Shown here one piece after another: positions 13,910 to 31,069 of a stretch of 64,000 bases of DNA (position 1 is the stretch's first letter; the number at the start of each line of letters is the position of its first letter). A program made the translations under genes and the position numbers. The notes under the pieces are model-generated. The model did not search any database and had not been told where the DNA came from. It saw nothing but the letters and a program-made list of their open reading frames with translations. Source of the DNA: Candidatus Sungiibacteriota bacterium (GTDB lineage: Bacteria; Patescibacteriota; Minisyncoccia; Sungbacterales; SURF-37); contig JACPMF010000009.1 in the NCBI GenBank assembly GCA_016186145.1, forward strand, positions 17,505 through 81,504, in the 5' to 3' direction.

Positions 13910-13913
13910 GGTA

Positions 13914-14036
13914 TATAATGCTAATCTACGAATGAAATGCGAATGCCGCTAATTATTAGCATGACATATTCCAGTACTACGCTCGCCCGCTATTCGCGGC
14001 ATTCGCATATTATTTGCATAATTCGCATTATGCTTA
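13914..14036. promoter_or_regulatory. 123-bp leader/promoter repeat, copy 1 (immediately upstream of pilT)
   Basis: Identical to 16239-16361. Contains the IR gcgaatgccgc...gcggcattcgc and the hairpin gcataattcgcattatgc. Confidence 0.6.
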
Positions 14037-14515: not shown

Positions 14516-16234
14516 TTATACCACTTCCAACAACTCCTTCATCCCCACAACACCTTTCAACGCTTTGTAAAAACCGTCCTGACGGAGCGTAATCATGCCT
14601 TGTTTCTTAGCCTCTTCGGCGAGTTTAAATTCTGTCGGCCCGGAAAGAATAATTTTCTCGAGCTGCGGCGTCATTTCAAGCGCTTCAAAAACGCCTATCC
14701 TCCCCTTGGTCCCCATCGGGCAAAAAGAAGAGACCTCGCCTTCGTAGAGTGGCCCGGTCATGAGCTTTTCAAGCTCGCGGCGAGCGGACTCCGGCATTTC
14801 GGCAAGCTCGTCCCCAATCAGCTCTTTGGCGCGCCCCTCCAATTTAACTTCTTTTTTTGAATCAGGACACAGTGTCCGTACCAGGCGCTGGGCAACCGCC
14901 AAAATAAGCGTTGACGGAATCAAAAACGGTTCCACGCCCAAATCAACCAAGCGCGGGATAACGCCGACGGCGTTATTCGTGTGGAGAGTTGAAAGCACCA
15001 GATGGCCCGTGAGCGCCGCGTGAATCGCAAGCTGAGCAGTTTCCCGATCCCGTATCTCGCCAACCATAATAATATCGGGGTCCTGGCGAAGAATCTGGCG
15101 AAGCCCGGAAGAAAAATCATATCCTATCTCCGGACGCACCTGGGACTGATTTACCCCGGATATATAGTACTCGACCGGATCTTCCAAACTTACGATGTTC
15201 ACACCCTCCTTATTCAAAATGTTAAGAATTGCATAGAGTGTCGATGATTTTCCTGAACCGGTGGGGCCGGTAAGCAGCACCAAACCGAACGGTTTTCGTA
15301 TACTCCGCTCGACAACTTCAAGATTCCGCCCGTCGATACCAAGCTCCGGGAGAGTTTTAATGCCGACCGCCGGATCAAGAATACGAATCGCCGCCTTTTC
15401 ACCGTACTGCGCAGGGAATGTCGCAACGCGAAAGTCAATCTCCCGATCAAGCACCCGCGCATGAAACCTACCGTCTTGCGGAATACGAGTCTCGTCTATT
15501 TTCATATTCGTCATGATTTTGATACGAGAAATGATGGCGCTCTGTACCGCAGAAGGCAACACCAAGGTTGTATGCAAAACGCCGTCAACCCGGAAACGAA
15601 CCCTCACCTGCCGCGGTTCCGGCTCAATATGAATATCAGACGCCTTTCCTTCAACGGCATGACGCAATATAACACCGACCATTTTTGTGATTGGCGCCTC
15701 TTCGGCCATTTTCTCAAGTTCTGCTGCGCGCGGAGGACGACCCACCACATCAACCTCAAGTTCTTTTTCAAATTCGGTCAAAGACCGGGTAACTTCGCCG
15801 CCGAGCGTTTTGTATTCCGTAAGTACGGCCTTAAGATCGCCCGGCGTAATGATGAAAATTTTAAAAGGGATGTTCAGCCGCGTTGCAATAAACTTGAGTG
15901 CCTCTTGCGCATTCACGTCGTCAGGGTTGACCATTCCAATCTCAAGCGACCCGTCCCCGCTTTTCTCAATAGGAATAAACTTGTAAAACTTTGCCGATTC
16001 TTCCGGAATATTCCGCAGAATCTCGAACTCGACTTTTCCTCCCTCGAGGAAACGAGCCGGAATGCCCAAAAGCTCTGATTTTGCCAAAGCGACATCCCGC
16101 TCCGGAATGCCATGCTGATAAAAAATGTCTTCAAGCGGCCGACCGGTTGATTTTGCCTCCCGTCGCATTCCTGAGGCCGCTTCTTGCGTCAAGACCCCTT
16201 TTTGAGCGAGAACATCAGCAATTGATTTAGCCAT
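14516..16234 (-). CDS. pilB: type IV pilus assembly ATPase (GspE family)
   Basis: 572 aa: N1/N2 domains, Walker A GPTGSGKS, Asp/His boxes, tetracysteine motif C..C...C..C. Confidence 0.85.
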   Translation of the reverse strand: MAKSIADVLAQKGVLTQEAASGMRREAKSTGRPLEDIFYQHGIPERDVALAKSELLGIPARFLEGGKVEFEILRNIPEESAKFYKFIPIEKSGDGSLEIGMVNPDDVNAQEALKFIATRLNIPFKIFIITPGDLKAVLTEYKTLGGEVTRSLTEFEKELEVDVVGRPPRAAELEKMAEEAPITKMVGVILRHAVEGKASDIHIEPEPRQVRVRFRVDGVLHTTLVLPSAVQSAIISRIKIMTNMKIDETRIPQDGRFHARVLDREIDFRVATFPAQYGEKAAIRILDPAVGIKTLPELGIDGRNLEVVERSIRKPFGLVLLTGPTGSGKSSTLYAILNILNKEGVNIVSLEDPVEYYISGVNQSQVRPEIGYDFSSGLRQILRQDPDIIMVGEIRDRETAQLAIHAALTGHLVLSTLHTNNAVGVIPRLVDLGVEPFLIPSTLILAVAQRLVRTLCPDSKKEVKLEGRAKELIGDELAEMPESARRELEKLMTGPLYEGEVSSFCPMGTKGRIGVFEALEMTPQLEKIILSGPTEFKLAEEAKKQGMITLRQDGFYKALKGVVGMKELLEVV

Positions 16235-16238
16235 GATG

Positions 16239-16361
16239 TATAATGCTAATCTACGAATGAAATGCGAATGCCGCTAATTATTAGCATGACATATTCCAGT
16301 ACTACGCTCGCCCGCTATTCGCGGCATTCGCATATTATTTGCATAATTCGCATTATGCTTA
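16239..16361. promoter_or_regulatory. 123-bp leader/promoter repeat, copy 2 (immediately upstream of pilB)
   Basis: 100% identical by eye to copy 1 at 13914-14036. Confidence 0.6.
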
Positions 16362-16649: not shown

Positions 16650-16835
16650 GCGAATTTTATTTACGAGCTTTAGCGAATAACCATAAAATTCAGCACCCTG
16701 TTAAATAATTTCGCCGGAGGCGAAATTCCTCTGCCTAATAAAATCAGAGATTTTATTAGGCAGAGGATTTAACAGGGTAAAAGTTTGGCAGCTAAATTTT
16801 GTTCGGCTTCGTCTCCAAAATTTAGGCCAAGCCGT
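16650..16835. repeat. composite 3'-UTR repeat, copy A (conserved hairpin + palindromic core ccctgttaaat...atttaacaggg)
   Basis: Flanks ~85% identical to 58246-58303 / 58113-58141; the core palindrome is different but self-complementary. Confidence 0.55.
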
Positions 16836-17390
16836 TTACCTTGAATAGTACGTCGCTGCGTTCAAAGAGAACTCAAGCGGGCCCTCTCTTGCATCTTGCT
16901 GCCTGGTACCGAAAGAAATGTCCGCCACATCAACAATGCGCACCGTTTTTTCAAGATCCCGGAGGAACGCGCCGAATGACTCGTAACTGCCAAGCATCTT
17001 TAACGAGACGTCAACCGGAATTACTTGCCGCTCTGTGGGAAGTTTAAGCTGGGACGTGGTCGGCTTCTCTTGAGAAACAAAATCTATGCTCCGCAAGAAC
17101 ATGCCGTGTCGCTTGGCAAGCGCCTCGATATCTCGGACAAACTGCGCGCTTCCAAGTCCTCGCGGAACCATGGCAGAAAGTTTATTAAGGTCAGTCTGCG
17201 AAATAGAATTATACTGTCCCATCAGTTCGTCTCGAACCCCGGCAATATCCTGCAATTCGTCGTTTAAAGCAGTAAACTCGGCAATCTCGACTTGAAGGTC
17301 CGTCACTTTTTGCCATGCAGGAAAAACGCCGGAAAAAAAGACGACAACAGAGATGAAAAGAAAGATGATGGAGAAAACAAAACGAGTCAT
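16836..17390 (-). CDS. PilO-like pilus assembly protein
   Basis: N-terminal TM, coiled-coil, ~180 aa; position between the PilN-like gene and pilB. Confidence 0.5.
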   Translation of the reverse strand: MTRFVFSIIFLFISVVVFFSGVFPAWQKVTDLQVEIAEFTALNDELQDIAGVRDELMGQYNSISQTDLNKLSAMVPRGLGSAQFVRDIEALAKRHGMFLRSIDFVSQEKPTTSQLKLPTERQVIPVDVSLKMLGSYESFGAFLRDLEKTVRIVDVADISFGTRQQDAREGPLEFSLNAATYYSR

Positions 17391-19221: not shown

Positions 19222-19364
19222 CTACAGAGCTAAGAACTAAGCAAAAGGAGCTAAGAAAACACAGCCATTATTCGGGCTTCCTGGTTCTTAGTTCCTCGTT
19301 CTTAATTCAGGGTTGCGGATGCTTACTTAAGTATTATACCATAATTCTGCGATAATTGCGCATA

Positions 19365-19483
19365 AATCCCGTTAGAGATAGGAAATGCCGCAGGCATTTC
19401 CGTTGATTATGATTGGTATAATGGCTTTCAGGCACATAATGCTGTTGGGTGGCCAAATAAAAAGTTTAAATCTCTAACGGGAT
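19365..19483. mobile_element. MITE-like hairpin element, copy D (ATAAAtcccgttagagata ... atctctaacgggATAAAa)
   Basis: Inverted termini with the 5-bp flanking direct repeat ATAAA; the interior holds the sub-hairpin ggaaatgccgcaggcatttcc. Lies between pilM and comF. Confidence 0.55.
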
Positions 19484-19502
19484 AAAAACTGCAAAAACAG
19501 CT

Positions 19503-20210
19503 ATGTGGATAAATCTAACGGAAATAAAGGGTTTTGCGCTTGACCTTGTCTTTCCCAAAACATGCCTCCTTTGCTTACAGGAGAAGGAATTCTTATGTGC
19601 TACGTGCGCAAAAACCCTTACTTTTAGAGAACCGTCGTGTTTCGTCTGCCGGAAACGCGACCTTGAAGGAAAAACTTGCCCTTCCTGCCGTGAAAAGACA
19701 TTGATTCGAAGGTTTTACCGCCCATTTAGCTATAAAGACGAGACGGTAAGAAAGCTAATACACGTCTATAAATACGAACGCGCAAAAGAAATAGCCCGAC
19801 CGCTTGGGGGATTCATAATCAGCGCGATGCAAAAGGCAGGTTTTCCAAGAAAGAAAACCATAACAATCATTCCTATTCCCCTCCACTGGCGGAAGAAACG
19901 CGAACGCGGATTTAACCAAACAGAGCCGCTTGCGGAGATAATCGGCGCCTTCTTCGGACTGCCGGTTCTCTCCGAAACGCTGATCCGCACAAAAAATACC
20001 TCCGCACAGATCGAGATGGAAAACAACTTGCTCCGTCGCCAGAATATAACGGGCGCATTTGCCGTGAAAAATCCAGCCGCGGTTGTGGAAAAAACTATCC
20101 TTCTTATTGACGACGTTATCACGAGCGGGGCAACTGTCGAAGAAGCCGCGGCAACTTTAAAAAAGGCGGGCGCGCGATCAGTATGGCTGGCTGCAATCGC
20201 CGGACGCTAA
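19503..20210 (+). CDS. comFC: ComF-family protein (phosphoribosyltransferase domain)
   Basis: N-terminal 4-Cys zinc ribbon (CLLC...CAKTL...CFVCRK...CPSC), C-terminal PRTase motif LIDDVITSGATV. Confidence 0.8.
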   Translation: MWINLTEIKGFALDLVFPKTCLLCLQEKEFLCATCAKTLTFREPSCFVCRKRDLEGKTCPSCREKTLIRRFYRPFSYKDETVRKLIHVYKYERAKEIARPLGGFIISAMQKAGFPRKKTITIIPIPLHWRKKRERGFNQTEPLAEIIGAFFGLPVLSETLIRTKNTSAQIEMENNLLRRQNITGAFAVKNPAAVVEKTILLIDDVITSGATVEEAAATLKKAGARSVWLAAIAGR

Positions 20211-20269
20211 AAAGACAATTGCATTCGTCCTTCCCTTCTGGTACTTCTAAAAGAAAGAGGTCTTTTAAA

Positions 20270-20830
20270 ATGGAGGCAAAAATGAATAGCCAGAACGCCC
20301 AAGCCGGGGAACCAAACCTTATTGACCCGACAACCGATCAAGACTTCTTCGCCATTGGCCGCGTCTTGCTCTCTCGCTCAACATGCCTAAAAACACAAAC
20401 AGCGGCATTGATTGTCGCCGAAGGAAAAATAGTTTCCTGGGGAGTAAACATGTGCTGCCCGCAAGACCAGATTTACGGCTTGCCGGTATCGGAATGCCCG
20501 CGCATGCAGCAAGAAACAGGAACGTTTTACGAACGCTGCAAACCGATCCATGCCGAGATCGTTGCCGCAATCAATGCGTTCGGCATCAGCCACATCGACC
20601 GGAAAACCCTCTGGCACTTCCCCGGTTTCACCCTAAAACTCATGCACTACGCAGGTTTTTTCAAAAACAAGGAGGCCGTCTTATACCTTCTCGGCCATTA
20701 TTGGGCATGCAGCGAATGCGTCGACTTTCTCAAGCTCATCGGCATTACCGAAATCAAATTTGATAACCTCTCCGGAGGCAAGACGCTGAAAGAATACCAG
20801 GCAAAAGATCTCACGGGAAAGGAGCGATAA
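20270..20830 (+). CDS. dCMP/cytidine-deoxycytidylate deaminase family protein (ComEB-like)
   Basis: H(A)E ... CSEC zinc-binding motifs. Start ambiguous (ATG at 20270, or 20282 with a GGAGG RBS). Confidence 0.7.
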   Translation: MEAKMNSQNAQAGEPNLIDPTTDQDFFAIGRVLLSRSTCLKTQTAALIVAEGKIVSWGVNMCCPQDQIYGLPVSECPRMQQETGTFYERCKPIHAEIVAAINAFGISHIDRKTLWHFPGFTLKLMHYAGFFKNKEAVLYLLGHYWACSECVDFLKLIGITEIKFDNLSGGKTLKEYQAKDLTGKER

Positions 20831-21107
20831 CGGTGAAAAAGTTTTGAAAATGTCCTTCTAATGCTTCAGGAGGAAACCGCAAAATTTTTCAATACCGCCG
20901 CGTAACGGCGGTTTATTTTTGAACGAAACATAAAAAAGGAAGCACAATGGCTTCCTTCTCACTACTTACTCAATATTATGGCGACCGGAATAGAAAAAAG
21001 ATTCCTCATAGGACATTACTAACGCGAAATAAAATTAAATATGGGTTTTGTAAATTTTGTAACGGGGTTCATGCCGCGTGTGGTGACTGATGGAGTTCCG
21101 ATGGGAA

Positions 21108-21551
21108 TTATTTAAAAATCTCGTCTATAGTTTTTCTATTATGCAGCCCCAAAAATGCGGTGCGCCTTTTTAACTCGTCAAACAAAATCCCAAATTTAGA
21201 AAACACGCTCTCACGCCCAAAAATGCGCGGACTAGATGCATTTTCTACGAAAATTATAGGTACTTTAATTTTCATACCGTCCAATTGAATTTTCACCATA
21301 TGACGATATCCCAACATTGATTCTCCCGAAACACCACGAACGATAAACTTTTTACCATTCGCGACATCTATACCCAACGTCTCTGCGTCAGCCGAGGGCA
21401 TAATGCTTGTTGTTGCACCGGAATCTAAATGAAAAACAGTACGCAGGCCGCGCCCGTTCTTTCCTAAAACAAAAAGCTCGGCCGCAGGGAATACCTCTAT
21501 GCGGCCGTCTTCTTGAAGGCGAAGACCATACGCGAAAATGTATTTGCTCAT
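21108..21551 (-). CDS. retropepsin-like aspartic protease (clan AA)
   Basis: Active-site HLDSGATTS; ~147 aa from the Met at 21551. That Met overlaps the upstream stop as ATGA (translational coupling). Confidence 0.65.
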   Translation of the reverse strand: MSKYIFAYGLRLQEDGRIEVFPAAELFVLGKNGRGLRTVFHLDSGATTSIMPSADAETLGIDVANGKKFIVRGVSGESMLGYRHMVKIQLDGMKIKVPIIFVENASSPRIFGRESVFSKFGILFDELKRRTAFLGLHNRKTIDEIFK

Positions 21552-21832
21552 ATCCTGTATACCACGGTTATCCCTTTCGGCACCGAAACAAGCAAAATAT
21601 CCCGCCATGTAGCGCGGGGGAACTTACGCTTAGCCTTTTTCAATACCTCTGTTGTGTCGATACCGGACGCTACGATCTTTCCACCAACAATAGCCACCTG
21701 TTGACCTCCGTACTTTTTAACATTGATTACGGGAGTAATGTCTCGCTTCATATGGCCTATTATACACAACTTACATAAAAAATCAAAACCCCGTAATAAT
21801 TTTACGGGGATAAAATTAATTTCGTGCTCCAC
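21548..21832 (-). CDS. small protein translationally coupled to the aspartic protease
   Basis: 94 aa (or ~67 aa from the internal Met); 4-nt ATGA overlap with the downstream protease gene. Confidence 0.4.
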   Translation of the reverse strand: MEHEINFIPVKLLRGFDFLCKLCIIGHMKRDITPVINVKKYGGQQVAIVGGKIVASGIDTTEVLKKAKRKFPRATWRDILLVSVPKGITVVYRI

Positions 21833-21910
21833 AATTAATCCGCGCCCCGATTGTAATCGGGGCGCGGAATTTTTGCGGACGAAATTAAAAAAGAAAGCGT
21901 GACGGCTTCC

Positions 21911-22225
21911 TTAAAACAATTTATAACAATCCACGGAAAGTGTGCCGATCTTGGGTGGCGTGACAACCTCAAAATGAAAACGTTTGCCGTCTTTGGAAAC
22001 AGACTCGATGATAAAAGAATTACCGTGAAGTTCCTTGAAAAGAACAACCCCATTCGCATCAGTAATTGCCTCGCGCACCACCGTACCGTCTGATAACTCA
22101 ACTAGCACTTTTGCATTCGGCGCGAGCTCGCATATCTTTACGCCTTGTACATAAGCCCACGCATGACCACCCATCACTAAAAAGAAAAGAAAGACGGACA
22201 CGGCCGCAAAAATCGCATTTCTCAT
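21911..22225 (-). CDS. small secreted protein (signal peptide)
   Basis: AAGGAGG RBS 7 nt before the ATG at 22225; N-terminal signal AIFAAVSVFLFFLVMGGHAWA. Confidence 0.45.
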   Translation of the reverse strand: MRNAIFAAVSVFLFFLVMGGHAWAYVQGVKICELAPNAKVLVELSDGTVVREAITDANGVVLFKELHGNSFIIESVSKDGKRFHFEVVTPPKIGTLSVDCYKLF

Positions 22226-22233
22226 GACAGCGA

Positions 22234-22355
22234 CCTCCTTATATCGGAAACTTTCTGCAAAGAACTTTACCTTTCTTAATAGTATCACTCTGGCTGTTTC
22301 CGGTCAATGCTTCAAAAATCAACCTCGCAACCTCTTTCATTTCTTTTTCTTTCAT
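22234..22355. repeat. copy of glyA 3'-terminal ~110 bp (att-like module), copy 3
   Basis: ~97% identical to 25362-25481 (the last ~40 codons of glyA plus the RBS region). Confidence 0.7.
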
Positions 22356-22414
22356 CCCGCCTCATTTCATTTCGCGGTTCAAAATATCATGGGTGCCGAC
22401 GCGGCGAAGAACTA
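22356..22414 (-). pseudogene. RelE/ParE toxin 3' remnant
   Basis: Matches the last ~60 nt of toxin gene 24472-24732 (ttcgcggttcaaaatatcatgggt...); the rest of the gene is deleted. Confidence 0.55.
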
Positions 22415-22636
22415 TTATAATGAAGCAACAAGCGCCCCGCGTCCAGTAAATCGTCGAGATATCTTTTTTAGTTTAATCGCTTCATCGGCTTCCGCTTCTT
22501 TTTTTTGCCATTCAGGAGTCCAAAACCACTTTTCGTCTAAATTAACCCTTACTGACTTTCTCCATTTAGAAAACGCCTCAAATTCTTTATGAGGAATCAA
22601 AACAAACTTTCCTTTTGGAATAGTGATAACAGTCAT
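22415..22636 (-). CDS. putative antitoxin (paralog of 24735-24968)
   Basis: MTVITIPKGKFVLIPHKEFEAF..WRKSVRVNLDE.WFW.PEWQKKEAEADEAIK; ~85% identical to the antitoxin upstream of RelE at 24472. Confidence 0.5.
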   Translation of the reverse strand: MTVITIPKGKFVLIPHKEFEAFSKWRKSVRVNLDEKWFWTPEWQKKEAEADEAIKLKKISRRFTGRGALVASL

Positions 22637-22695
22637 GATTTTAGTATACATATAAACCGATAACAGTCAAATAAAAAAGGAAGCGTGACGGCTTC

Positions 22696-22932
22696 CTAAG
22701 AATAACTTTGATCGCTTTTTACATACTGAATTACGTCGTCGACGTGTTTCCAAAGTCCTATGCTTAACCCAACACCAGTCACCGCTGCGATAGCACTGAA
22801 TCCAAACACGTTATTTTCACTTACTGCGAAAACTGCTAAACTGCCGAACACTAATACAATGACAAATTGTGCTACTGCGGCGAAAACTATTTCCGCCGTA
22901 ATCCTAGCCCTTCTTAACTTTGTACTCACCAT
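22696..22932 (-). CDS. small membrane protein
   Basis: 78 aa, two TM helices; rho-independent terminator (aggaagccgtcacgcttcc + T run) right after the stop. Confidence 0.35.
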   Translation of the reverse strand: MVSTKLRRARITAEIVFAAVAQFVIVLVFGSLAVFAVSENNVFGFSAIAAVTGVGLSIGLWKHVDDVIQYVKSDQSYS

Positions 22933-22951
22933 TTGCCCCTTCCCTTTTTGA

Positions 22952-23281
22952 CTATCTTACCCGCATCCATGAACCGTCTTTCCTGCGGCGATATCTTCGC
23001 TTTTCATTTTGAACTAAAACTTTATCCATCTCCCGATCAGTGTTAACGCCCAAAATCTCAAGAAACCCGAGATCAAACACCATCAGATCAATTAAAGCGT
23101 TAATAACCTTACTGCGGTTTCCTCTCCTATGCGCGGCGGCAAGTTCTCCGAGCTCTTCGACAAGGTGGACAATCTCTTCACGCACACCATTCCGGCTTCT
23201 ACTAACATTAAAACCTTTTGCAACTTTATTTCGGTATATTCTTCGCTGCAGCAACTTAAGATGGCCGCACCCTTTGCTCAT
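22952..23281 (-). CDS. MazG-like small nucleotide pyrophosphohydrolase (tentative)
   Basis: EEIVHLVEELGELAAA...ALIDLMVFDLGFLEILGVNTD.E...V..N.KR pattern resembles the MazG all-alpha NTP-PPase fold. Confidence 0.4.
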   Translation of the reverse strand: MSKGCGHLKLLQRRIYRNKVAKGFNVSRSRNGVREEIVHLVEELGELAAAHRRGNRSKVINALIDLMVFDLGFLEILGVNTDREMDKVLVQNEKRRYRRRKDGSWMRVR

Positions 23282-23411
23282 TAACTAATCCTCCTTATAT
23301 CGTAAATTTCTTGCAAAGAGCTGTCACTTTCTTACTCGTACTATTTTTACTATTTCCTGTCAACGTTTCGTAAATCAACCCTGCAATTTCTTTCATCGCC
23401 TTTTCTTTCAT
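23282..23411. repeat. diverged copy of glyA 3'-terminal module, copy 2
   Basis: Collinear with 25362-25481 at roughly 75% identity (by-eye estimate). Confidence 0.6.
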
Positions 23412-23493
23412 CCCGTTACAAAATTTACATAAGTCATTTACGAAATATAACCATTTTTAGTCTAAAAAAACAAAATTCAATCAAAGATCTTGT
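23411..23493. mobile_element. hairpin element H (tcccgttacaaaatttaca ... tgtaaattttgtaacggga)
   Basis: 19-bp perfect inverted repeat sharing the TCCCGTTA core; a half-copy lies at 21048-21074. Confidence 0.45.
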
Positions 23494-23561
23494 AAATTTT
23501 GTAACGGGATTCGTGCCTAACTGTTGTGGCAACGAACGGCGTCACAATATAAAGCCGGAGG

Positions 23562-23828
23562 TTATTGATAAATGTTGCTCGCACGGCGCAGTACTTCTTT
23601 AATTTCAACAACGCCTGCGCCAGTCCGTATGGAATAAAAGATGCGATAATTACCTACACGCCTCCGCCATAAATCATCTCTCTCGCCAATTTTAGCGATA
23701 TCTCCCAGCCACGGATCGATAACAAAATCGCGAAGCGCGTTTAATATACGTTCGCGATCGCGGATAGGTAGACGTTTGATTTGTTTTTTAACGCGTTTTG
23801 GTATGTGTACGACCCAGCTCATTTTCAA
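23562..23828 (-). CDS. RelE/ParE-family type II toxin
   Basis: ...VGNYRIFYSIRTGAGVVEIKEVLRRAS is a typical RelE/ParE C-terminus; overlaps the upstream antitoxin. Confidence 0.7.
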   Translation of the reverse strand: MKMSWVVHIPKRVKKQIKRLPIRDRERILNALRDFVIDPWLGDIAKIGERDDLWRRRVGNYRIFYSIRTGAGVVEIKEVLRRASNIYQ

Positions 23829-24024
23829 AATCTTCTAAAGTCACATAAGCGCCGTGCACCAGTTCCTTATCGCTTTTTTCAATGGCCCGCGCCTCTTTTT
23901 CGCTCAGTTTTACAACCGAAATAACCTTAGGCCGCCTACGAAGGAGTATTTCGTACTCTTTTCGGGGAATCACAACAAGGTCATCTTTACGAGCTAACTT
24001 TTTTGGAATAGTAATAATAGCCAT
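23788..24024 (-). CDS. putative antitoxin (AbrB/SpoVT-like ITIPKK motif)
   Basis: MAIITIPKKLARKDDLVVIPRKEYEILL; overlaps the RelE-like gene. Confidence 0.5.
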   Translation of the reverse strand: MAIITIPKKLARKDDLVVIPRKEYEILLRRRPKVISVVKLSEKEARAIEKSDKELVHGAYVTLEDFENELGRTHTKTR

Positions 24025-24092
24025 GAATAAAGCATACAAGAAACAACAATATAAAGTCAAACAAAAAAGGAAGCGCGGCGGCCTCCTAATAA

Positions 24093-24338
24093 TCAAAGAT
24101 CTTTTTTAGTATTCAAACCCCTTTTAAAAACCAACATTCCCATAAAAACGGCCCAGACACCTACTAATGTTCCAAAAGTCTGCCAAAGAAACTCACTGGA
24201 GTAAACAGAACCTCTATGCCGTAAAATGTAAATCCCCCCTCCGGACAGAGACATGCCGAAAATCATTAAAAGAAACCAAACAGTCCCCAATAAAAATATA
24301 GTCGTACCACTATAAATTCCGAGCCTCCTCATGGTCAT
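24093..24338 (-). CDS. small membrane protein
   Basis: GGAGGG RBS; two TM helices; 81-83 aa. Confidence 0.4.
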   Translation of the reverse strand: MTMRRLGIYSGTTIFLLGTVWFLLMIFGMSLSGGGIYILRHRGSVYSSEFLWQTFGTLVGVWAVFMGMLVFKRGLNTKKDL

Positions 24339-24344
24339 GGTCAA

Positions 24345-24466
24345 ACCCTCCTATATTGAAAATTTTCTGCAAAGAACTTTAACTCTCATACTCGTAGCAC
24401 GGAGGTTATGCATCGTCAACGCTTGATAAATCAGCCAGCGATTTCTTTCATCTGTTTTTCTTTCAC
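24345..24466. repeat. diverged copy of glyA 3'-terminal module, copy 1
   Basis: Ends conserved with 25362-25481 (ATGAAAGAAA... / ...AGTTAAAGTTCTTTGCAG...ATATAGGAGG); the centre is diverged. Confidence 0.55.
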
Positions 24467-24471
24467 CCGCC

Positions 24472-24732
24472 TCATTTCCTTTCGCGGTTCAAAATATCAT
24501 GGGTACCTGCGCGGCGAAGAATTATCGTTTGGTTATCAAGTTGAAAAGTGAAACGATACCCGCGGCTTATACGCGCATACCAAATCTCTGTGCCGGGAAG
24601 TTTCTTTGCGCGAAGTGAAGAATGCCGAATGTTTTCTAATAAAAATCCGAGCGCCTTGCCAAGCGCTCGTTGAATATTCTGCGGCAAATCTTTATAGTCT
24701 CTTTTAAACGGCCCCGTATAGACAATCTCCAT
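24472..24732 (-). CDS. RelE/ParE-family type II toxin
   Basis: ...YRFTFQLDNQTIILRRAGTHDIL, a typical ParE/RelE fold signature. Confidence 0.7.
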   Translation of the reverse strand: MEIVYTGPFKRDYKDLPQNIQRALGKALGFLLENIRHSSLRAKKLPGTEIWYARISRGYRFTFQLDNQTIILRRAGTHDILNRERK

Positions 24733-24734
24733 TT

Positions 24735-24968
24735 CTATTTACGCTTTAGTGAAGCAACAAGCGCATTGTGTTTAGTAAATCGCCGGGACATTTTTTTTCG
24801 TTTAATCGCTTCATCAGCCTCGGCTTCTTTTTTTTGCCACTCCGGAAACCAAAACCATTGTTCATCCAAATTAACCCGTACTGACTTTCTCCATCTAGAA
24901 AACGCTTCAAATTCTTCGTGAGGAATCAGAACAAATTTCCCTTTTGGAATAGTAATAATTTTATTCAT
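24735..24968 (-). CDS. putative antitoxin (ITIPKGKFVLIPHEEFEAF...)
   Basis: Paralog of 22415-22636; 3 nt upstream of the toxin. Confidence 0.5.
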   Translation of the reverse strand: MNKIITIPKGKFVLIPHEEFEAFSRWRKSVRVNLDEQWFWFPEWQKKEAEADEAIKRKKMSRRFTKHNALVASLKRK

Positions 24969-25035
24969 AGATATTTTATTATACCGAAAATATGAACTAA
25001 AAGTCAAACAAAAAAGGAAGCACGATAACTGCTTC

Positions 25036-25350
25036 CTATGTTTCTGGACAATAAAGTTTTGTTTCTATGCCGTTGAAAAAGCCTGCGCCCTTCCCGACCC
25101 CCGGACCATCTTGATACCAAAATATAATCTCCCAGTAACCCTTGGCGATATTCTCAAATCGGGCCACACCGTTAACAGGTTTTACATCTAAAATCGCGCC
25201 TGTACTCTGGATAGAAATTAGTTCAACCCCGGCATCATCATCTACGCAGACAACCAAGTTGGTCGTAACGAAATACCGATCGTAAACCCCCAGCCCAATC
25301 GCACCAAGAAACGCTGCTATCAAAACCACGAAAACCCACTTCCCCCACAT
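25036..25350 (-). CDS. small secreted protein (signal peptide)
   Basis: AAGGGAGG RBS; MWGKWVFVVLIAAFLGAIGLG signal; first gene after the glyA stop. Confidence 0.45.
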   Translation of the reverse strand: MWGKWVFVVLIAAFLGAIGLGVYDRYFVTTNLVVCVDDDAGVELISIQSTGAILDVKPVNGVARFENIAKGYWEIIFWYQDGPGVGKGAGFFNGIETKLYCPET

Positions 25351-25361
25351 TGTTGCCTCCC

Positions 25362-26603
25362 TTATATATATTTGAAACTCCTGCAAAGAACTTTAACTTT
25401 CTTATTAGTATCACTCTGGCTGTTTCCGGTCAATGCTTCAAAAATCAACCTCGCAACCTCTTTCATTTCTTTTTCTTTCATGCCGCGGGTCGTAATTGAC
25501 GGCGTGCCGATACGAATACCAGAAGGGTCAAAGGGTGAGCGCGCATCATACGGAATAGTGTTGCGATTGACAATAATTCCAACTTGCTCAAGCCGGTCCT
25601 GTGCTTCTCTACCGGAAATACCAAGTTTGGTGACATCAACCAACATCAAGTGGTTGTCGGTTCCGCCGGATATAATTTCCAAACCTAATTCTTGCAGTTC
25701 ATGCGCGAGTATTTTTGCGTTTTTTACAATTTGTCTTCCGTACTTCTTAAACGCGGGCATCATCGCCTCGCCAAGCGCTACGGCAATTGCGGCAGTCTGA
25801 TTATCATGCGGCCCGCCTTGCAGAGCCGGAAAAATTGCTTTATCAATTTCTTTGGCAATATCAACTTTATTGATAGCGGCTATCTTTGACTTTGTATTAA
25901 CAAAAATCATAGCCCCTCTCGGGCCGCGCAAGGTTTTATGCGTCGTAGTGGTTGCCACATCAACATACGGAAATGGTGAAGGGTGCGCGCCAGCCGCAAT
26001 CAAACCGGCAATATGGGCGATATCTGCCATCAAATACGCCCCGACCTCATCGGCTATTTTGCGGAATTTTTTAAAATCAATAATTCGAGAATAAGCCGTC
26101 GCTCCGCAAACGATAATCTTTGGTTTTTCTTTTTGCGCAATTTTTCTGACATCATTATAGTCAACATAGCCATCGCGCCCAACCCCGTATTGCACTGACT
26201 TCCAAAATCTAGCGGTTGCCGAAACTTTCCAACCGTGGGTGAGATGGCCGCCAAAAGGCAAAGACATTCCCATTATTTTTTCACCGTCTTTCAAAAGCGC
26301 GTAATACACGGCAAAGTTTGCGGGTGAACCCGAATACGGCTGGACGTTCACGTGCCAATTTTTACCAAGCCGAAAGACTTTGCGAGCGCGTTCTTGGGCG
26401 AGCAGCTCAATTTCGTCAACAACATTATTTCCCGCATAATATCGTTTCCCGGGATATCCCTCGGAATATTTATTCGTGAGCGGGGAGCCCAGCGCTTCCA
26501 AAACCGCCGCCGAAACGATATTTTCAGAAGGAATCAAATCAAGCGTCCACTGCTGGCGCTTGATTTCGTCGCGGATCAGATTAAAAATTATGCGGTCAGA
26601 CAT
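25362..26603 (-). CDS. glyA: serine hydroxymethyltransferase
   Basis: SENIVSAAVLEALGSPLTNKYSEGYPGKRYY, PLP site ...TTTTHKTLRGPRG; start set at MSDRII by alignment. Confidence 0.92.
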   Translation of the reverse strand: MSDRIIFNLIRDEIKRQQWTLDLIPSENIVSAAVLEALGSPLTNKYSEGYPGKRYYAGNNVVDEIELLAQERARKVFRLGKNWHVNVQPYSGSPANFAVYYALLKDGEKIMGMSLPFGGHLTHGWKVSATARFWKSVQYGVGRDGYVDYNDVRKIAQKEKPKIIVCGATAYSRIIDFKKFRKIADEVGAYLMADIAHIAGLIAAGAHPSPFPYVDVATTTTHKTLRGPRGAMIFVNTKSKIAAINKVDIAKEIDKAIFPALQGGPHDNQTAAIAVALGEAMMPAFKKYGRQIVKNAKILAHELQELGLEIISGGTDNHLMLVDVTKLGISGREAQDRLEQVGIIVNRNTIPYDARSPFDPSGIRIGTPSITTRGMKEKEMKEVARLIFEALTGNSQSDTNKKVKVLCRSFKYI

Positions 26604-26707
26604 TTTCCTTATTTTGCCACTGAAATAAAACAAAGTAAATATTGACGCCAAACAAAACCGCGCTATTATTTATTTAAAATGTTCTTTACCAAATAAAGGA
26701 GGCGGCT

Positions 26708-26932
26708 ATGAGCTTGAAAGTGTATATCGTGGTCTTCAGTGACGGTATCGGTCAAAAGGCCTGCGAAATTGCCGCGCGCGATGAAGCCGAAGCAATAAAG
26801 CTTGTCCGTGAAGATCCCTATTCGGCAGGAGCCAAGGATATTCATGTTTTAGGCGAACTCAAAAACCCAGTAATGCTTCGCTGGTTGCCATACATTCCTT
26901 CAAAATCATGGGTGGAACGCCGCAATGGATAA
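26708..26932 (+). CDS. small hypothetical protein
   Basis: AAAGGAGG RBS; 74 aa; overlaps the start of the HAD hydrolase gene. Confidence 0.45.
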   Translation: MSLKVYIVVFSDGIGQKACEIAARDEAEAIKLVREDPYSAGAKDIHVLGELKNPVMLRWLPYIPSKSWVERRNG

Positions 26933-27707
26933 AACACGAAATGGTTCTTCTCCTATGGTTTTTGTCTTTGACGGCGACGACACGCTATGGATGAACGAAT
27001 GGCAGTACTCCCAAACCTACGCCGACTTTTTCAGCTATCTCTATGCAACACTCGGCGACAGAACGCCAAATTTCCACTATATCCGCGAACGATATTTTCA
27101 AATAGAGGGAGAGCTTTACAAGACATGTGGTGTTCGCCGAGGCAGGGTTGCCGAAGCAATGGCATGCCTTCATAAAGAAATTTGCGCATGGATAGAATGG
27201 CGATGGAACGAGAATTTATACAGGGAAGAAGACGAAGAAGAAATCCGAAAAATCGGCGACCAGCCGTTTGACTACACAAAACTGCGTTGGGTGCCGGGTG
27301 CTGAAAAAACACTACAAACCTTAAAAGCGGCTGGGCATAAACTTTGTTTCCTTTCAAGTTACGACAGTGCGGTTTTCCCGAAACGGGCCGGGTTTCTTTG
27401 GTTATCACGATTTTTCGGCCCTGAAAGAATCCGTACCACTGAATACAGAAAAAATAAAGAAGATTTTATCGCGGTAAGCGGTTGGACACCAAACGATACT
27501 AGTACATACTATGCCGTAGGAAACAGCGAAAGCGATATTCTGCCGGCGCTTGAAATCAACGATACATGGCGAGGCATTTATATACCATATGGATCAACTT
27601 CAAAATTCTTCGCTGCTAGAGATGCTATAAATTTCTTGGCGCAACCAATGGACCATCCGCGCGTTACAACCATTAAATCCATTGCTGAACTCCTTAGTAT
27701 TTTATAA
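26925..27707 (+). CDS. HAD-superfamily hydrolase (phosphatase)
   Basis: Motif I FVFDGDDTLW, motif IV-like GNSESD. Confidence 0.6.
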   Translation: MDKTRNGSSPMVFVFDGDDTLWMNEWQYSQTYADFFSYLYATLGDRTPNFHYIRERYFQIEGELYKTCGVRRGRVAEAMACLHKEICAWIEWRWNENLYREEDEEEIRKIGDQPFDYTKLRWVPGAEKTLQTLKAAGHKLCFLSSYDSAVFPKRAGFLWLSRFFGPERIRTTEYRKNKEDFIAVSGWTPNDTSTYYAVGNSESDILPALEINDTWRGIYIPYGSTSKFFAARDAINFLAQPMDHPRVTTIKSIAELLSIL

Positions 27708-27801
27708 ATCCAAAGACCGTTTGTCACAACGGTCTTTTTAAAAAATTCAAACATAACATTAACTGTCCGATCGGACAGTTAATGTTATGGATTGAAACTT
27801 A

Positions 27802-28431
27802 TCAACTAAGAAGGTCTCTAACGGTTTCTACAAATTCCTTTTTGTGATTAGAATTTTTAACCAAATCCAGTTTGTCGGTATTCACCGAGACGATACGGAA
27901 CTTATACTCCCCCTTGGTCCACTCTTGCTGCAAACGATGAAGGGTTTCTAAATAAATGGGATCCACCTCTGTCTCAAAGCCGCGAGCGCGTTTTTGTATC
28001 CGCTGTTTTAAAACAGGCAGAGAAGCTTCAAGGTTGATGATAAGATCCGGCTTAGGAAGATTTTTTGCAAGAAGAGAATTGAAAAACTTCTGATAAAGAG
28101 AAAACTCTATTTCTGACATCCGCCCGAGAATTTTTTGCGCTTTGGCGTATGTGAAGTTGTCCTGGTATACAAACGAATCCTGAATTACGCTTTGCTCGGC
28201 CAAAAGTGATGCCATGTGTTCAAGCTGCCGAACCCGGTCTTCTAAAAAAAATAGCTGCAAAGAAAAAGCCCACCGCGCCGGGTCTTTATAAAAAAGCGGG
28301 AGGAACGCATTCTCATTAACAGTCTCTTCCAAAACGTGAAATCCGAGCTCCTGCTTCAAAAGATTGCAAGCAGTGGTCTTTCCCGACCCCATAATGCCGG
28401 TTAGGGCAATGAAATAATTTTTTTTCTGCAT
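27802..28431 (-). CDS. deoxynucleoside kinase
   Basis: P-loop IALTGIMGSGKTT, dNK-family length and LID region; lies next to folA/thyA. Confidence 0.7.
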   Translation of the reverse strand: MQKKNYFIALTGIMGSGKTTACNLLKQELGFHVLEETVNENAFLPLFYKDPARWAFSLQLFFLEDRVRQLEHMASLLAEQSVIQDSFVYQDNFTYAKAQKILGRMSEIEFSLYQKFFNSLLAKNLPKPDLIINLEASLPVLKQRIQKRARGFETEVDPIYLETLHRLQQEWTKGEYKFRIVSVNTDKLDLVKNSNHKKEFVETVRDLLS

Positions 28432-28436
28432 GCCAT

Positions 28437-28934
28437 TTAAAAATTATCAGTAGTTCGCCGCAACACAATAAAAGTGTACGGGTAGATATTTTTCTCACCC
28501 GGCCCGTAATTTTCACAAAAAATTTCTTGCCACCCTTTCCTTGAAAACTCCGGAAAGTATGTGTCGCCTTCAAAATCGTGATCTACCAGAGTGAGGTACA
28601 TGCGCGTTGCTCGTGGCAGAAAAAGTTTATAAATCTCTCCGCCGCCTATAACCATTGCTTCTTCATATCCATTGCACTTTTGAAGCGCCTCGTCTACAGA
28701 ATGTACTACTATACACCCTTCTTGCAAGTAACTTTTGTCCCGAGTCAAAATTATATTGACACGTTCGGGTAGCGGCCTGCCGATTGACTCATAAGTTTTC
28801 CGGCCCATGATAATCGGCTTGCCAATGGTGAGTTCACGAAAGCGCTTCATGTCAGCCGACAATTTCCAGAGCATAGTATTGCCCTTTCCGATTACATTAT
28901 TTTTGGCGATGGCGGCGATTAGAGAAATAATCAT
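28437..28934 (-). CDS. folA: dihydrofolate reductase
   Basis: MIISLIAAIAKNNVIGKGN.MLW.L..D...F...T.GKPIIMGRKT.ESIGRPLP.R.NI.LTR. Confidence 0.9.
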   Translation of the reverse strand: MIISLIAAIAKNNVIGKGNTMLWKLSADMKRFRELTIGKPIIMGRKTYESIGRPLPERVNIILTRDKSYLQEGCIVVHSVDEALQKCNGYEEAMVIGGGEIYKLFLPRATRMYLTLVDHDFEGDTYFPEFSRKGWQEIFCENYGPGEKNIYPYTFIVLRRTTDNF

Positions 28935-29108
28935 TTAACCAACAAAATACTAACTTCTAAATCCCTGCCTGCGCGCGACGCGCGGGTAGGCGAAATCCTA
29001 AACAAATTCTAAACCACAAATTTTTAAATCCAAAACATGTTTGGAATTTAGAGTTTGTGAATTGTGATTTGTTTAGGATTTAAAGTTTAGGGCTTATGGT
29101 TTTATAAA

Positions 29109-29930
29109 TTACACTGCCATCGGCGCTTTAATCGCCGGATGCGACTCATAATCAACAAGCTGAATATCGTCCATAGTGAAACTGTCTATATCTTTTACTT
29201 CTGGTTTAAGCCGCAATTTTGACAACGGAAATGTTTCGCGTCCTAATTGCTCTTTAACTTGATCAAAGTGGTTATGGTAAATATGGGAATCGCCAAGTGT
29301 ATGAATAAATTCTCCCGGAGTCAAACCCGCAACTTGCGCGACCATGTGTAAAAGCAAGGAGTAAGAAGCGATATTAAAAGGTACTCCCAAAAACATATCG
29401 CACGAGCGCTGGTACATCTGGAGCGACAGTCTTCCGTCTGCAACATAAAACTGTGAAAAGGCATGGCACGGCGGAAGAGCCATCTGATCAATTTCTCCGG
29501 GATTCCACGCAGTCAAAATAAGACGCCGGTCATGCGGGTCTTTTTTAATTCGCTCTATGACATCTTTGATCTGGTCTATTTCTCTGCCATCCGGGGCTCT
29601 CCATGATCTCCATTGAACGCCGTATATCCTACCGACATCTCCATTAAAACGAGCTTTCGGTTTCCAGTACGGCGCCTCGGCATTTGCATCCCAAATACGC
29701 GCGCCAAGCTCATTTAATTTTTTTACATCGGAACTGCCCTGCAAAAACCACAAAAGCTCGGCCTTAACTGGATTAAAAGCAAGTTTTTTGGTGGTTATCG
29801 CCGGAAAACCATCGCTCATCTTGTACCTCATCTGCATTCCAAAAACCGCTCTGGTCGGAATTCCTGTCCGATTCGGCTTATCAACACCGTTTTCAAGAAT
29901 ATATTTTAGTGAATCGAGGTATTGTTTCAT
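29109..29930 (-). CDS. thyA: thymidylate synthase (ThyA type)
   Basis: MKQYLDSLKYILENG..K.NRTG, catalytic LPPCHAFSQFYV, and Asn in GVPFNIASY (dUMP specificity). Start set at Met57 of the track ORF by alignment. Confidence 0.9.
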   Translation of the reverse strand: MKQYLDSLKYILENGVDKPNRTGIPTRAVFGMQMRYKMSDGFPAITTKKLAFNPVKAELLWFLQGSSDVKKLNELGARIWDANAEAPYWKPKARFNGDVGRIYGVQWRSWRAPDGREIDQIKDVIERIKKDPHDRRLILTAWNPGEIDQMALPPCHAFSQFYVADGRLSLQMYQRSCDMFLGVPFNIASYSLLLHMVAQVAGLTPGEFIHTLGDSHIYHNHFDQVKEQLGRETFPLSKLRLKPEVKDIDSFTMDDIQLVDYESHPAIKAPMAV

Positions 29931-30116
29931 GCGAATTTTATCCCGCAACTTCCGCGACCGAAGGGAGCGCGAGGTTGGCGAGGACCCCGCACCTCCCGAA
30001 CTGCTGACTCGGTAAAATTCAGAGTCAGTATCGCGGAAGTACGGGACCGCGCACTCAAACCTCACTTCGTTCGGGATGGTGCGGTGGTTTACGAGCATTA
30101 GCGAGTAACTATAAAA

Positions 30117-30240
30117 TTCATCCCGTTAGAAGCAGATCGCGATCAAACAGTTGTCTTCTGCGTAGATTTTATTCATTTCTACTATTGTAAGGTATTAGCC
30201 TTTTAAAATTCGGTAGCGATCGCGGCTTCTAACGGGATTC
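30117..30240. mobile_element. MITE-like hairpin element, copy C (ttcatcccgttagaagc ... gcttctaacgggattc)
   Basis: Termini and subterminal gatcgcgatc match copy F in inverse orientation; TGAA/ATGAA duplication at the insertion point, which lies inside another repeat (gggtgctgaa^ttttatag). Confidence 0.55.
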
Positions 30241-30242
30241 AG

Positions 30243-30391
30243 CACCCAGCACATAAATTTACAGTCGTCGTTTAGGGTATTTCAAGGTTATTTCATCAGC
30301 CCCGTGATTAAAATTATCCGACGGATGTAAATTTATGTGCTGGGTGAAGGTTTTGTAACTAAAATTTCATCGCCTGCGGCTCGAAATTTTA
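30243..30391. repeat. composite 3'-UTR repeat, copy C2 (palindromic core cacccagcacataaatttaca...tgtaaatttatgtgctgggtg + conserved hairpin)
   Basis: Same flanks as copies A and B (hairpin ctaaaatttc...gaaattttag, ttacaaaacc); different self-complementary core; directly after the dcd stop. Confidence 0.5.
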
Positions 30392-31069
30392 GACAAAGCC
30401 CTTCACCTCCCAATCTTTATGCATCTGCGGAATCATCATGTGCGGATTCCATGACTTTTTAACTTCTTCTATCTCTTGGGACAACTGATATTTCCCGCCT
30501 TCCCCAACATAATCCGGCGCTGTCTTCAACGGCTCGACTTCATAAAAAACCATCTGGCCGATTCTCCGGCCAACAACAAGCGGTATGGTAAAATATTGAG
30601 AATTATTGGTAACCTCCATAGTCCAGCGATTGAAATAACCGATATCGCCCCATCCGGCATCTTTGCAAACCTCGACAAAATTCCTGCCAAGCGAAGACCG
30701 GGCATACATTTTGCCGACGACCTTATGCCGGCCGCCGATGAATTCGAGCGTGTGAGCAAGGACGGTCTCCCCAGGCCTTAATAAAATCACTTTTTCGTCG
30801 GGTTTAATGTTTTTGAGCCCAACTCCGGTCCGGCTTGACACACCTTCAGCAAGTTCTGCCTGATACGGACCTGACCAAACGCGCTTGGTGGACTCTTCGT
30901 CGTAAAGATTGTGCAAAGTGGCCCCCCCATCAGGATGTTTTTCTTTCCAATACCAATCGCCGAGCGTAACATCATAGCTCGTTGTCTTAAGTTTCCGCCC
31001 GTCAAAAGGATCAACAACTATCGTCCCTCCTTTAATGTGCCGTAAAATTGCGTCGCGAGATAACAACAT
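30389..31069 (-). CDS. dcd: dCTP deaminase family protein
   Basis: MLLSRDAILRHIKGGTIVVDPF...SYDVTLG N-terminus and G.GDIGY...T.E..N core; longer (226 aa) than canonical Dcd. Confidence 0.7.
   Translation of the reverse strand: MLLSRDAILRHIKGGTIVVDPFDGRKLKTTSYDVTLGDWYWKEKHPDGGATLHNLYDEESTKRVWSGPYQAELAEGVSSRTGVGLKNIKPDEKVILLRPGETVLAHTLEFIGGRHKVVGKMYARSSLGRNFVEVCKDAGWGDIGYFNRWTMEVTNNSQYFTIPLVVGRRIGQMVFYEVEPLKTAPDYVGEGGKYQLSQEIEEVKKSWNPHMMIPQMHKDWEVKGFV

Follow-up and report, generated by a model that had tools for sequence, protein, structure and literature searches.

Bacteria of the candidate phyla radiation (CPR, or Patescibacteria) have tiny genomes with few recognisable mobile elements, and the route by which they gain genes is an open question. 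In Streptococcus thermophilus, cis-mobilisable elements (CIMEs) accrete together with ICESt1 and ICESt3 at the 3' end of fda, and chromosomal integrons hold arrays of promoterless or self-contained cassettes of about 1 kb, among which toxin-antitoxin (TA) cassettes are thought to stabilise the array. Tycheposons form arrays at tRNA genes (bioRxiv 10.1101/2020.12.28.424599), and the plasmid dif (pdif) modules of Acinetobacter are small, integrase-less and often TA-bearing units, which the Xer recombinases of the host are believed to mobilise in trans (PMC6449649, PMC13141974). Sequential displacement of C-terminal ends or effectors has left arrays at Rhs, contact-dependent inhibition (CDI) and type VI secretion system (T6SS) loci (Kirchberger et al. 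2017, PMC5361080, within which Jackson et al. 2009 and Poole et al. 2011 are cited for such arrays), and the model proposed for the T6SS and Rhs arrays is homology-facilitated illegitimate recombination with sequential displacement (PMC5361080). Here we analyse 64,000 nt of Candidatus Sungiibacteriota DNA (assembly GCA_016186145.1, contig JACPMF010000009.1, positions 17,505 to 81,504; hereafter the window), in which glyA, the gene for serine hydroxymethyltransferase (SHMT), is followed by four units of about 1 kb, each headed by a copy of the glyA 3' end and most ending in a TA pair. Arrays of this kind are a genuine feature of CPR genomes, present in several lineages and not remarked on before.

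The glyA gene occupies 26651-25362 on the minus strand (Pfam SHMT, E = 2e-167), and its start is probably the ATG of MSDR..., 16 codons inside the open reading frame (ORF). A repeat search found its last ~120 nt three more times downstream, at 24345-24466, 23289-23416 and 22233-22360, with start-to-start spacings of 1014, 1056 and 1056 nt. The four copies, numbered in the direction of glyA, are delimited as Y1 (25362-25486, the functional glyA 3' end with its stop codon, followed by the ribosome-binding site (RBS) of the next gene at 25356-25360), Y2 (24345-24466), Y3 (23289-23411) and Y4 (22234-22360), all on the minus strand, as are all features of the array given below. Each copy heads one of units A to D, whose order in the glyA direction is a glyA-end copy, a GGAGG RBS with one or two small genes, a hairpin with a T-run, a promoter and a two-gene pair. 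Copies 1 and 4 are 91% identical over the full ~120-nt module and 97% over its first 106 nt, the first ~76 nt being identical and the divergence coming after, and the remaining pairs share 68-76% over the full module. An intact ORF of 38 codons is present in copy 3 (MKEKAMKEIAGLIYETLTGNSKNSTSKKVTALCKKFTI, with its RBS) and in copy 4 (MKEKEMKEVARLIFEALTGNSQSDTIKKGKVLCRKFPI), and copy 2 carries a 1-nt deletion and is hence frameshifted. A search with the 38-41-aa module peptide for orphan copies among proteins returned no candidates.

Two further glyA fragments are present in the array. The first, X3 (23514-23560), consists of ~45 nt of decayed glyA codons (PSGIRIGTPS..TTRGM) ahead of copy 3 and begins directly after the stop codon of toxin B, a left boundary identical to that found in one of the relatives (L150; the L numbers designate the sampled loci). 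The second, X5 (21068-21108), encodes IPIGTPSVTTRGM, ends at GGCATGAA, lies behind the protease gene of unit D and abuts a truncated miniature inverted-repeat transposable element (MITE). The four Y copies and the two X fragments hold the glyA register and stop position, with different genes after each, which identifies the repeats as glyA-derived and not as the leader of a paralogous gene family. An earlier note on this DNA, made from its letters alone, had already recognised the four glyA ends and their origin, the units, the terminator hairpin, the RelE/ParE pairs, a 60-nt toxin remnant and the graded divergence of the copies, and we find all of these where it placed them; X3, X5 and a 99-nt inverted-repeat element between X3 and copy 3 were absent from it.

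The glyA 3' end doubles as the translation-start region of the next gene, as at the end of every module copy the stop codon overlaps the GGAGG. In several genomes, the Leu-Thr codons of the module read TTGACA and are followed 17 nt on by TATAAT-like codons (TTGACA-17-TATAAT in L122, TATAAA in L049 and L051). Decayed copies hold these promoter-like boxes: copy 2 of L122 begins exactly at TTGACA, and copy 3 of L151 has stop codons inside, yet has kept TTGACA-18-TATAAG and AAAGTTCTTTGCA. Such retention in decayed copies makes it plausible that displaced glyA ends act as promoters for the following gene. A consensus scan found TTGACN-17-TANNAT at the Leu-Thr position in window copy 4 only, and the promoter-like matches of the region did not exceed those of shuffled controls.

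To trace the origin of the copies, we compared them with the glyA genes of relatives. The closest of these are CPR metagenome-assembled genomes (MAGs); scans of GTDB and JGI with glyA gave no relative closer than ~83-89%, a distance at which downstream synteny is lost. At 82.6% identity, copy 2 is nearer to the authentic glyA end of L112, the closest relative, than to the other window copies (68-73%), while copies 1 and 4 are nearest to the glyA end of L051 (84% and 82%). The body of the host glyA up to the module start is ~83% identical to L112 versus ~71% to L051, whereas its attached end is 79% identical to L051 versus 73% to L112 (40/42 versus 35/42 in the first 42 nt). Since the nearest relative switches at the module start, the host glyA appears from these identities to be a hybrid with a breakpoint near 25481, and the end that matches its body phylogenetically, copy 2, sits one unit downstream. 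Similarly, the orphan copy of L150 is L008-like. The foreign-like copy 2 and the hybrid glyA support serial acquisition, in which older ends would have been pushed downstream. Serial insertion at glyA had been proposed in the earlier note, and its serial part is supported by this evidence; its site-specific part is not supported, because the junctions vary and no core is present (see below).

The block of antitoxin A, toxin A, junction and copy 2 is 81.7% identical to L112 over 475 nt (window 24857-24417 versus L112 887-1361), and the glyA 3' region is 81.3% identical between the two over 235 nt. The toxin|module block is thus as diverged as glyA itself, and the junction therefore predates the split of the window and L112 lineages. 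The ~76-nt tract shared by copies 1 and 4 fits gene conversion between copies, and not a crossover at the module edge.

A second glyA end was found in none of the 38 species representatives recovered with glyA. Four other lineages, which come from independent assemblies, do have extra glyA-end copies (L112, L122-124, L150 and L151), and the copy number among relatives ranges from 1 to 4, a variation that the earlier note had anticipated. In L112, glyA is followed by a 36-aa ORF, the hairpin, the TA pair, a palindrome and a second copy, at which the contig ends. Three independent assemblies, L122, L123 and L124, have a shorter second copy, which starts exactly at TTGACA after the T-run of the hairpin. 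Locus L150 has a glyA end, an ORF, the hairpin, an A-type TA pair, a full and uninterrupted 56-codon glyA end, a MazG-like gene, a B-type TA pair and folP; the unit of glyA end and MazG-like gene is common to L150 and the window, in permuted neighbourhoods. The Sungbacteria MAG L151 has a glyA with a different and longer C-terminus, followed by three units derived from its own last 8 codons and leader; at the unit boundaries the identity is 97.6% over 84 nt of hairpin and promoter and 91% over 100 nt of toxin end and module, and the cargo between them differs. Like the tract of window copies 1 and 4, these matching boundaries and the permuted unit of L150 speak for homologous exchange between the linkers. 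We also observed in L122 (3590-3830) an insert of ~240 nt between cassettes with the motif tcgtcattctgagcgaagcgaagaatc, which resembles a dispersed repeat or a structured element.

Across the window, L112, L122, L150 and L151, the glyA ends join upstream DNA at no fewer than five different glyA positions. The junction lies at the Pro-Ser-Gly codons in window B|C and in L150, behind toxins of two different families, and at the Ile-Arg codons in X5, behind the protease gene. It lies at the Arg-Gly-Met codons in window A|B, in window C|D and in L112, where the upstream DNA is the same toxin and a single old event is involved (at copy 2 it reads TGA-G-GCGGG-TGAAAG, the TGA being the toxin stop codon). 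In L122 it lies at the TTGACA of Leu-Thr, behind the T-run of the hairpin, and in L151 at the last 8 codons, behind a toxin plus 37 nt. The L122 junction displays microhomology, TTGAC being common to the -35 box of the TA promoter and to the glyA Leu-Thr codons. No identical crossover core was found at every unit boundary. Inverted repeats of the form 11-N(5-8)-11 with up to 3 mismatches number 0 in the four module regions, versus 1.8 expected per 220 nt, and no 28-bp XerC-spacer-XerD (dif) site lies in or beside the glyA-end copies. With the copies aligned, this spread of at least five positions and the lack of an inverted-repeat core speak against the suggestion of the earlier note that cassettes carrying an attP had entered at one site.

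The one tyrosine recombinase of the window (40946-41863), ~15 kb from the array, is of the Xer type: it scores above cutoff for XerA only and reaches 131.8 bits against an integron-integrase cutoff of 265 bits, and is an ordinary housekeeping-type Xer. No integrase was found in the array, no integrase or transposase among 30 further large ORFs of the window, which are core genes (type IV pilus, thymidylate cycle, tRNA synthetase and similar), and no integrase with glyA-end repeats among ~150 glyA or toxin loci. Likewise, IntI, attI and attC sites were not identified.

The 99-nt element between X3 and copy 3 (23411-23509; 23407-23512 as delimited in the family comparison) has perfect inverted ends of 19-20 nt (TCCCGTTACAAAATTTACA), sits at TGAA and is flanked by the repeats CGAA/TGAA, with one mismatch. 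It belongs to a family of non-coding elements of ~100-165 nt with termini TCCCGTTA(G/C)A, present in 64 kb as five full copies and one truncated copy. The other full copies lie at 515-677, 52120-52242 and 19364-19486 on the plus strand and at 30117-30240 on the minus strand, with the flanking repeats TGAA, TGAA, TAAA and TGAA, respectively, and a truncated left end (CCCCGTTACAAAATTTACA...) lies at 21031-21067 (or to 21070), on the minus strand. The 4-bp flanking duplication is T(G/A)AA and the left flank often reads (G)CATGAA; the TAAA on both sides of the 19364-19486 copy identifies the flanking repeat as a target duplication and not as element sequence. The copies are intergenic, such as those ahead of thyA and between pilM and comF, and no transposase for them was found in the window. 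The element in the array is therefore a MITE that landed in a displaced glyA end, and is uninformative on how the units arrived.

We had considered this region as a palindromic attP, since the arrangement X-GGCATGAA-CCCGTTACAAAATTTACA / TGTAAATTTTGTAACGGG-ATGAA-Y resembled attL and attR with perfect inverted arms. This candidate was rejected: the same termini and 4-bp duplications bound five dispersed elements, which rules out the reading X-GGCATGAA-CCCGTTAC... / ...GTAACGGG-ATGAA-Y as an attachment site. A motif search in viral contigs gave 7 exact matches, about the number expected by chance and none in a related context. At the matching spot of L112, the toxin|module junction carries a 36-nt palindrome (TCCCACACATAAC..). 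A second inverted-repeat element (CCCAGCACATAAATTTACA - 58 nt - TGTAAATTTATGTGCTGGG) adjoins the MITE upstream of thyA, at 30244-30339, and its ends resemble the L112 palindrome.

We compared the layout of the locus in relatives whose SHMT is 57-83% identical, and found an order shared across this clade of the CPR: glyA, 0-3 unrelated small ORFs, the hairpin GGAAGC-N6-GCTTCC (stem conserved, loop variable), the promoter with the TA pair, and folD. Most relatives have a single unit (L001, L040, L049, L051, L122-125, L127 and L134). In L051, glyA is followed by a membrane ORF, the hairpin, the TA pair and folD; in L040 and L049 by one or more ORFs, the hairpin and folD; in L001 by the hairpin, a B-type TA pair and folD; and in L122-125, L127 and L134 by small ORFs, the hairpin, the TA pair and folD. 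Homologs of toxin A stand beside glyA or folD in 9/10 look-ups, the exception lying between dprA and topA. Because these homologs adjoin glyA or folD and the layout recurs, the hairpin and the TA pair belong to the glyA-folD locus itself in many CPR genomes, and are not, as the earlier note had supposed, cargo particular to an element. Nor did any of the relatives examined bear out its expectation of an empty site, with glyA directly followed by comEB: among close relatives whose flank on this side was read, folD mostly comes next after glyA or its units, and folP in L150. As a separate observation, a RelE-family TA pair lies within the glyA-folD operon of L122-L134, L148, L149 and L151, its start and stop codons sometimes overlapping glyA or folD; a TA pair conserved inside an operon of one-carbon metabolism is unusual.

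We lean towards a recombination hotspot with sequential 3'-end displacement at glyA as the origin of the array, and not a dedicated mobile-cassette system, because the junctions vary, the modules have no inverted-repeat core and the only recombinase is of the Xer type. DNA would be taken up from related cells with the same layout, and natural transformation is a plausible route since type IV pilus and com genes adjoin the array. The incoming DNA would pair with the resident locus in its conserved parts, at the TA genes, at the hairpin and promoter and at the 3' end of glyA. Homologous recombination would resolve one side; on the other, occasional illegitimate joining at short microhomology would place a block of glyA end, gene, hairpin and TA pair before the resident glyA end. 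The latter would be displaced downstream as a non-coding copy that still provides an RBS, and possibly a promoter, to the gene behind it, and repeated rounds would yield an array. Later RecA-type exchange and gene conversion between the repeated linkers would shuffle the units and homogenise the copies, with MITE insertion and decay afterwards. Deletions between the direct repeats would be costly where the TA pairs are intact, and the array would thereby be stabilised. GlyA is listed among the genes transferred exclusively between Patescibacteria (PMC12455944).

Several points weigh against displacement by such recombination. The glyA-derived sequence starts at Pro-Ser-Gly right after the stop codons of two toxin families (B3|X3 in the window, A-type toxin|X in L150), and this shared boundary looks like a defined cassette end. 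It might alternatively reflect a circle of glyA end, MazG-like gene and B-type TA pair that re-entered via the hairpin/promoter linker, a circular permutation that would account for the window order of B-type TA pair followed by glyA end and MazG. The units are also strikingly regular, at ~1 kb each, and the spread of junctions rests on only ~5 array lineages. Finally, the cargo has no homologs in the other glyA loci fetched, even at E<=0.05.

The regularity of the units, the foreign origin of the module copies and the Xer-type recombinase in the window would also fit site-specific mini-cassettes, that is small circles with the glyA 3' end as attP that enter a fixed glyA site through an Xer-type or other recombinase acting in trans, and which would resemble dif modules, CIMEs or cargo-only tycheposon remnants. 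Three junctions begin GG(G/C)ATGAAAG (window A|B, window C|D and L112) and two begin at the Pro-Ser-Gly codons behind different toxins, as expected for a fixed site. However, the three GG(G/C)ATGAAAG junctions share their upstream toxin and are as old as the lineage split, so that they represent one event, and across lineages the junction positions number at least five. In addition, the module copies lack an inverted-repeat core, the junction palindromes are MITEs with target-site duplications and not attP arms, no integrase-bearing relative was found among the ~150 loci, the TA pair and hairpin are resident in the locus, and the internal identity tract of copies 1 and 4 is not expected from a crossover at the 5' edge of the module. 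We therefore regard site-specific mini-cassettes as an unlikely origin. A cassette-capture system particular to the CPR, anchored in the glyA 3' end and either without its own integrase or with a recombinase in trans, seems quite unlikely to us; its units would start at Pro-Ser-Gly or Arg-Gly-Met and end at the toxin stop codon, and we are similarly doubtful that circles excise and re-insert with the TA pair as their addiction part.

The nearly constant spacing, the TA type shared by window units A and C (85% nt) and the near-identical boundary segments of neighbouring units in L151 could suggest that a single ancestral unit was duplicated in tandem, purely within the genome and without foreign DNA, and that the resulting units then diverged. 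This is improbable given that the cargo of different units is unrelated, that the TA pairs of units A and B belong to different subfamilies, that copy 2 is nearer to the glyA end of another lineage than to that of its host, and that the identity along the units is mosaic rather than uniform. An assembly artefact that concatenated alleles of co-occurring strains through the shared glyA-end repeat, as might be feared for a MAG and from the Logan contigs that break at the ~76-nt exact repeat of copies 1 and 4, is very unlikely, considering that one independent Logan contig (L120) covers copy 1 and units A and B into copy 3 at 100%, a second (L121) covers the A|B junction, the four other lineages with arrays come from different assemblies, with three independent ones for the L122 type, and the exact repeat is shorter than typical reads.

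The hairpin AAAAAAGGAAGC-N6-GCTTCC occurs five times in the array, against 0.27 matches expected by chance; two additional matches, with 3 mismatches each, are on the opposite strand of the 20932-20955 copy and at 57093, the only one outside the array. The stems are of 6-8 bp and the loops of 6-7 nt, with T-runs after them, and these 18-nt hairpins look like intrinsic terminators. The TA genes overlap or abut, and are preceded by a TTGACT-N16-18-TATAAT-like promoter. An Rfam scan of 20000-27000 gave nothing at gathering score.

The cargo of unit A is a 104-aa protein with an N-terminal membrane anchor and without a family match (25036-25350), followed by the terminator hairpin AGGAAGC..GCTTCCT with its T-run (25015-25037), the TA promoter TTGACT-18-TATAAT (25007-24978), a 77-aa antitoxin (24735-24968, or to 25007, also called as a gene in an identical Logan contig) and an 86-aa RelE-family toxin (24472-24732). 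This toxin is identical to NCBI protein HYW90_02865 and has sub-threshold matches to ParE (Pfam) and RelE/StbE (NCBIfam), while its family profile matches RelE3 of PDB 3bpq (E=1.7e-4) and RelE in PDB (E=0.012). Unit B carries an 81-aa protein with two transmembrane segments (24093-24338), the hairpin/terminator (24068-24087) and the TA promoter, a 78-aa antitoxin (23788-24024), homologs of which follow glyA in L001, and an 86-aa ParE/RelE toxin (23562-23822, or to 23828; Pfam ParE_toxin 27.6 bits, cutoff 23). Judged by sequence and operon order, the A and B pairs are type II RelE/ParE TA systems. Look-ups with the toxin for strain variants matched only 100%-identical Logan fragments.

Unit C has two cargo genes, a MazG/PRA-PH-like NTP pyrophosphohydrolase of 109 aa (22952-23281; Pfam PF01503, 26.1 bits), comparable to the MazG-like ORF behind the orphan glyA end of L150, and a 78-aa membrane protein (22696-22932). 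The hairpin/terminator (22678-22697) and TA promoter are followed by an antitoxin (22415-22651) that is a paralog of the unit A antitoxin (85% nt over 212 nt; 81% aa), and the toxin is reduced to a 60-nt remnant (22356-22414) of the 3' end of a unit-A-type toxin (22345-22415 versus 24455-24525, 86%). Unit D carries a 104-aa secreted protein (21911-22225) and a hairpin/terminator (21891-21912). Its TA pair is replaced (21108-21832) by a DUF5678 gene (21548-21832) and a retropepsin-like aspartyl protease gene (21108-21551/21608); the Pfam match confirms the protease that the earlier note had seen in the distal segment. The same pair of genes occurs near glyA in the Sungbacteria MAG L151, and an exact look-up of the protease gene for strain variants found none on record. 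Upstream of the DUF5678 gene (21789-21868) we observed two strong hairpins, one with a perfect, GC-rich stem of 13 bp (TCCGCGCCCCGATT..AATCGGGGCGCGGA), the other being CCCCGTAAAATTATTACGGGG, which together give a sub-threshold Rfam match to anti-hemB (31.4 bits versus 49.5). At the end of the array, a remnant of a small membrane ORF with a hairpin (20932-21022) is a homolog of the gene that directly follows glyA in L112 (77% over 92 nt to L112 636-727).

On its other flank, glyA belongs to a thymidylate-cycle cluster (26925-30098 and 30389-31069) with genes for a HAD hydrolase, a deoxynucleoside kinase, dihydrofolate reductase, thyA and dCTP deaminase, and comEB, for dCMP deaminase, lies on the opposite side of the array. 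The customary neighbour in relatives, folD, is absent from the 64-kb window, and the distal side has therefore been rearranged. The window holds some further repeats. A 130-nt direct repeat (13907-14036 and 16232-16361, 98%) lies upstream of a 354-aa T2SSE gene (12845-13909) and of a 572-aa pilB-like T2SSE gene (14516-16234), possibly as a leader or promoter that was duplicated. Another intergenic repeat family, of 72 nt, has three copies of 68-83% identity (16767-16838, 30334-30405 and 58235-58306), one of which overlaps the inverted-repeat element near thyA. Two adjacent 35-nt repeats with the T-arm-like GGTTCGATTCC (53135-53224) are probably two neighbouring tRNA genes.

These results point to a recurrent route of gene gain in at least five lineages, in which foreign DNA would be placed beside an essential one-carbon gene, its last 40-55 codons being replaced and the old end left behind together with the genes downstream of it, and the RelE-family TA pair resident in the glyA-folD operon of many CPR lineages could stabilise the resulting array. 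Should a dedicated mechanism exist, it would be a new cassette platform, functionally analogous to integrons or dif modules, in organisms that seemed to have no such platform. Otherwise, the locus would be a clear case of homology-anchored illegitimate acquisition outside toxin loci.

The statement of the earlier note that nothing similar had been described was too strong, in view of the displacement arrays at Rhs, CDI and T6SS loci (PMC5361080) and the accretion arrays of integrative elements at gene 3' ends. The glyA array shares with integrons the arrangement of ~1-kb cassettes, some with TA genes, but IntI, attI and attC (at least 55 nt, with R''/L''/L'/R' boxes) are missing here and the hairpins are terminator-like. 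It shares with dif modules the small, integrase-less, TA-carrying units in arrays, whereas the 28-bp XerC-6-XerD sites that flank dif modules, in alternating orientation, are missing at glyA. As in CIMEs and tycheposons, the tandem units lie between direct repeats of a gene 3' end, the older ones are moved outward by the newer and some have no integrase; in contrast, those elements have a defined att core and integrase-bearing relatives, neither of which was found for glyA, and the junctions here vary. The arrays at Rhs, CDI and T6SS loci differ in that their main gene encodes a polymorphic toxin with a variable C-terminal domain, where the glyA array is anchored in the gene of a housekeeping SHMT; at glyA, what is replaced is a conserved C-terminal helix region without toxin function, type II TA pairs and small envelope proteins take the place of immunity genes, and the host belongs to the CPR. 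In both cases, recombination is anchored in the conserved 5' part of a gene, whose 3' end is exchanged for that of an incoming module; the old end moves downstream with its partner gene, and orphan 3' fragments, each with small genes behind it, accumulate in a string. The orphan fragments likewise derive from alleles of other lineages, as copy 2 and the L150 copy do here, and the mechanism proposed for those loci combines homologous with homology-facilitated illegitimate recombination, as does the one that we propose for glyA.

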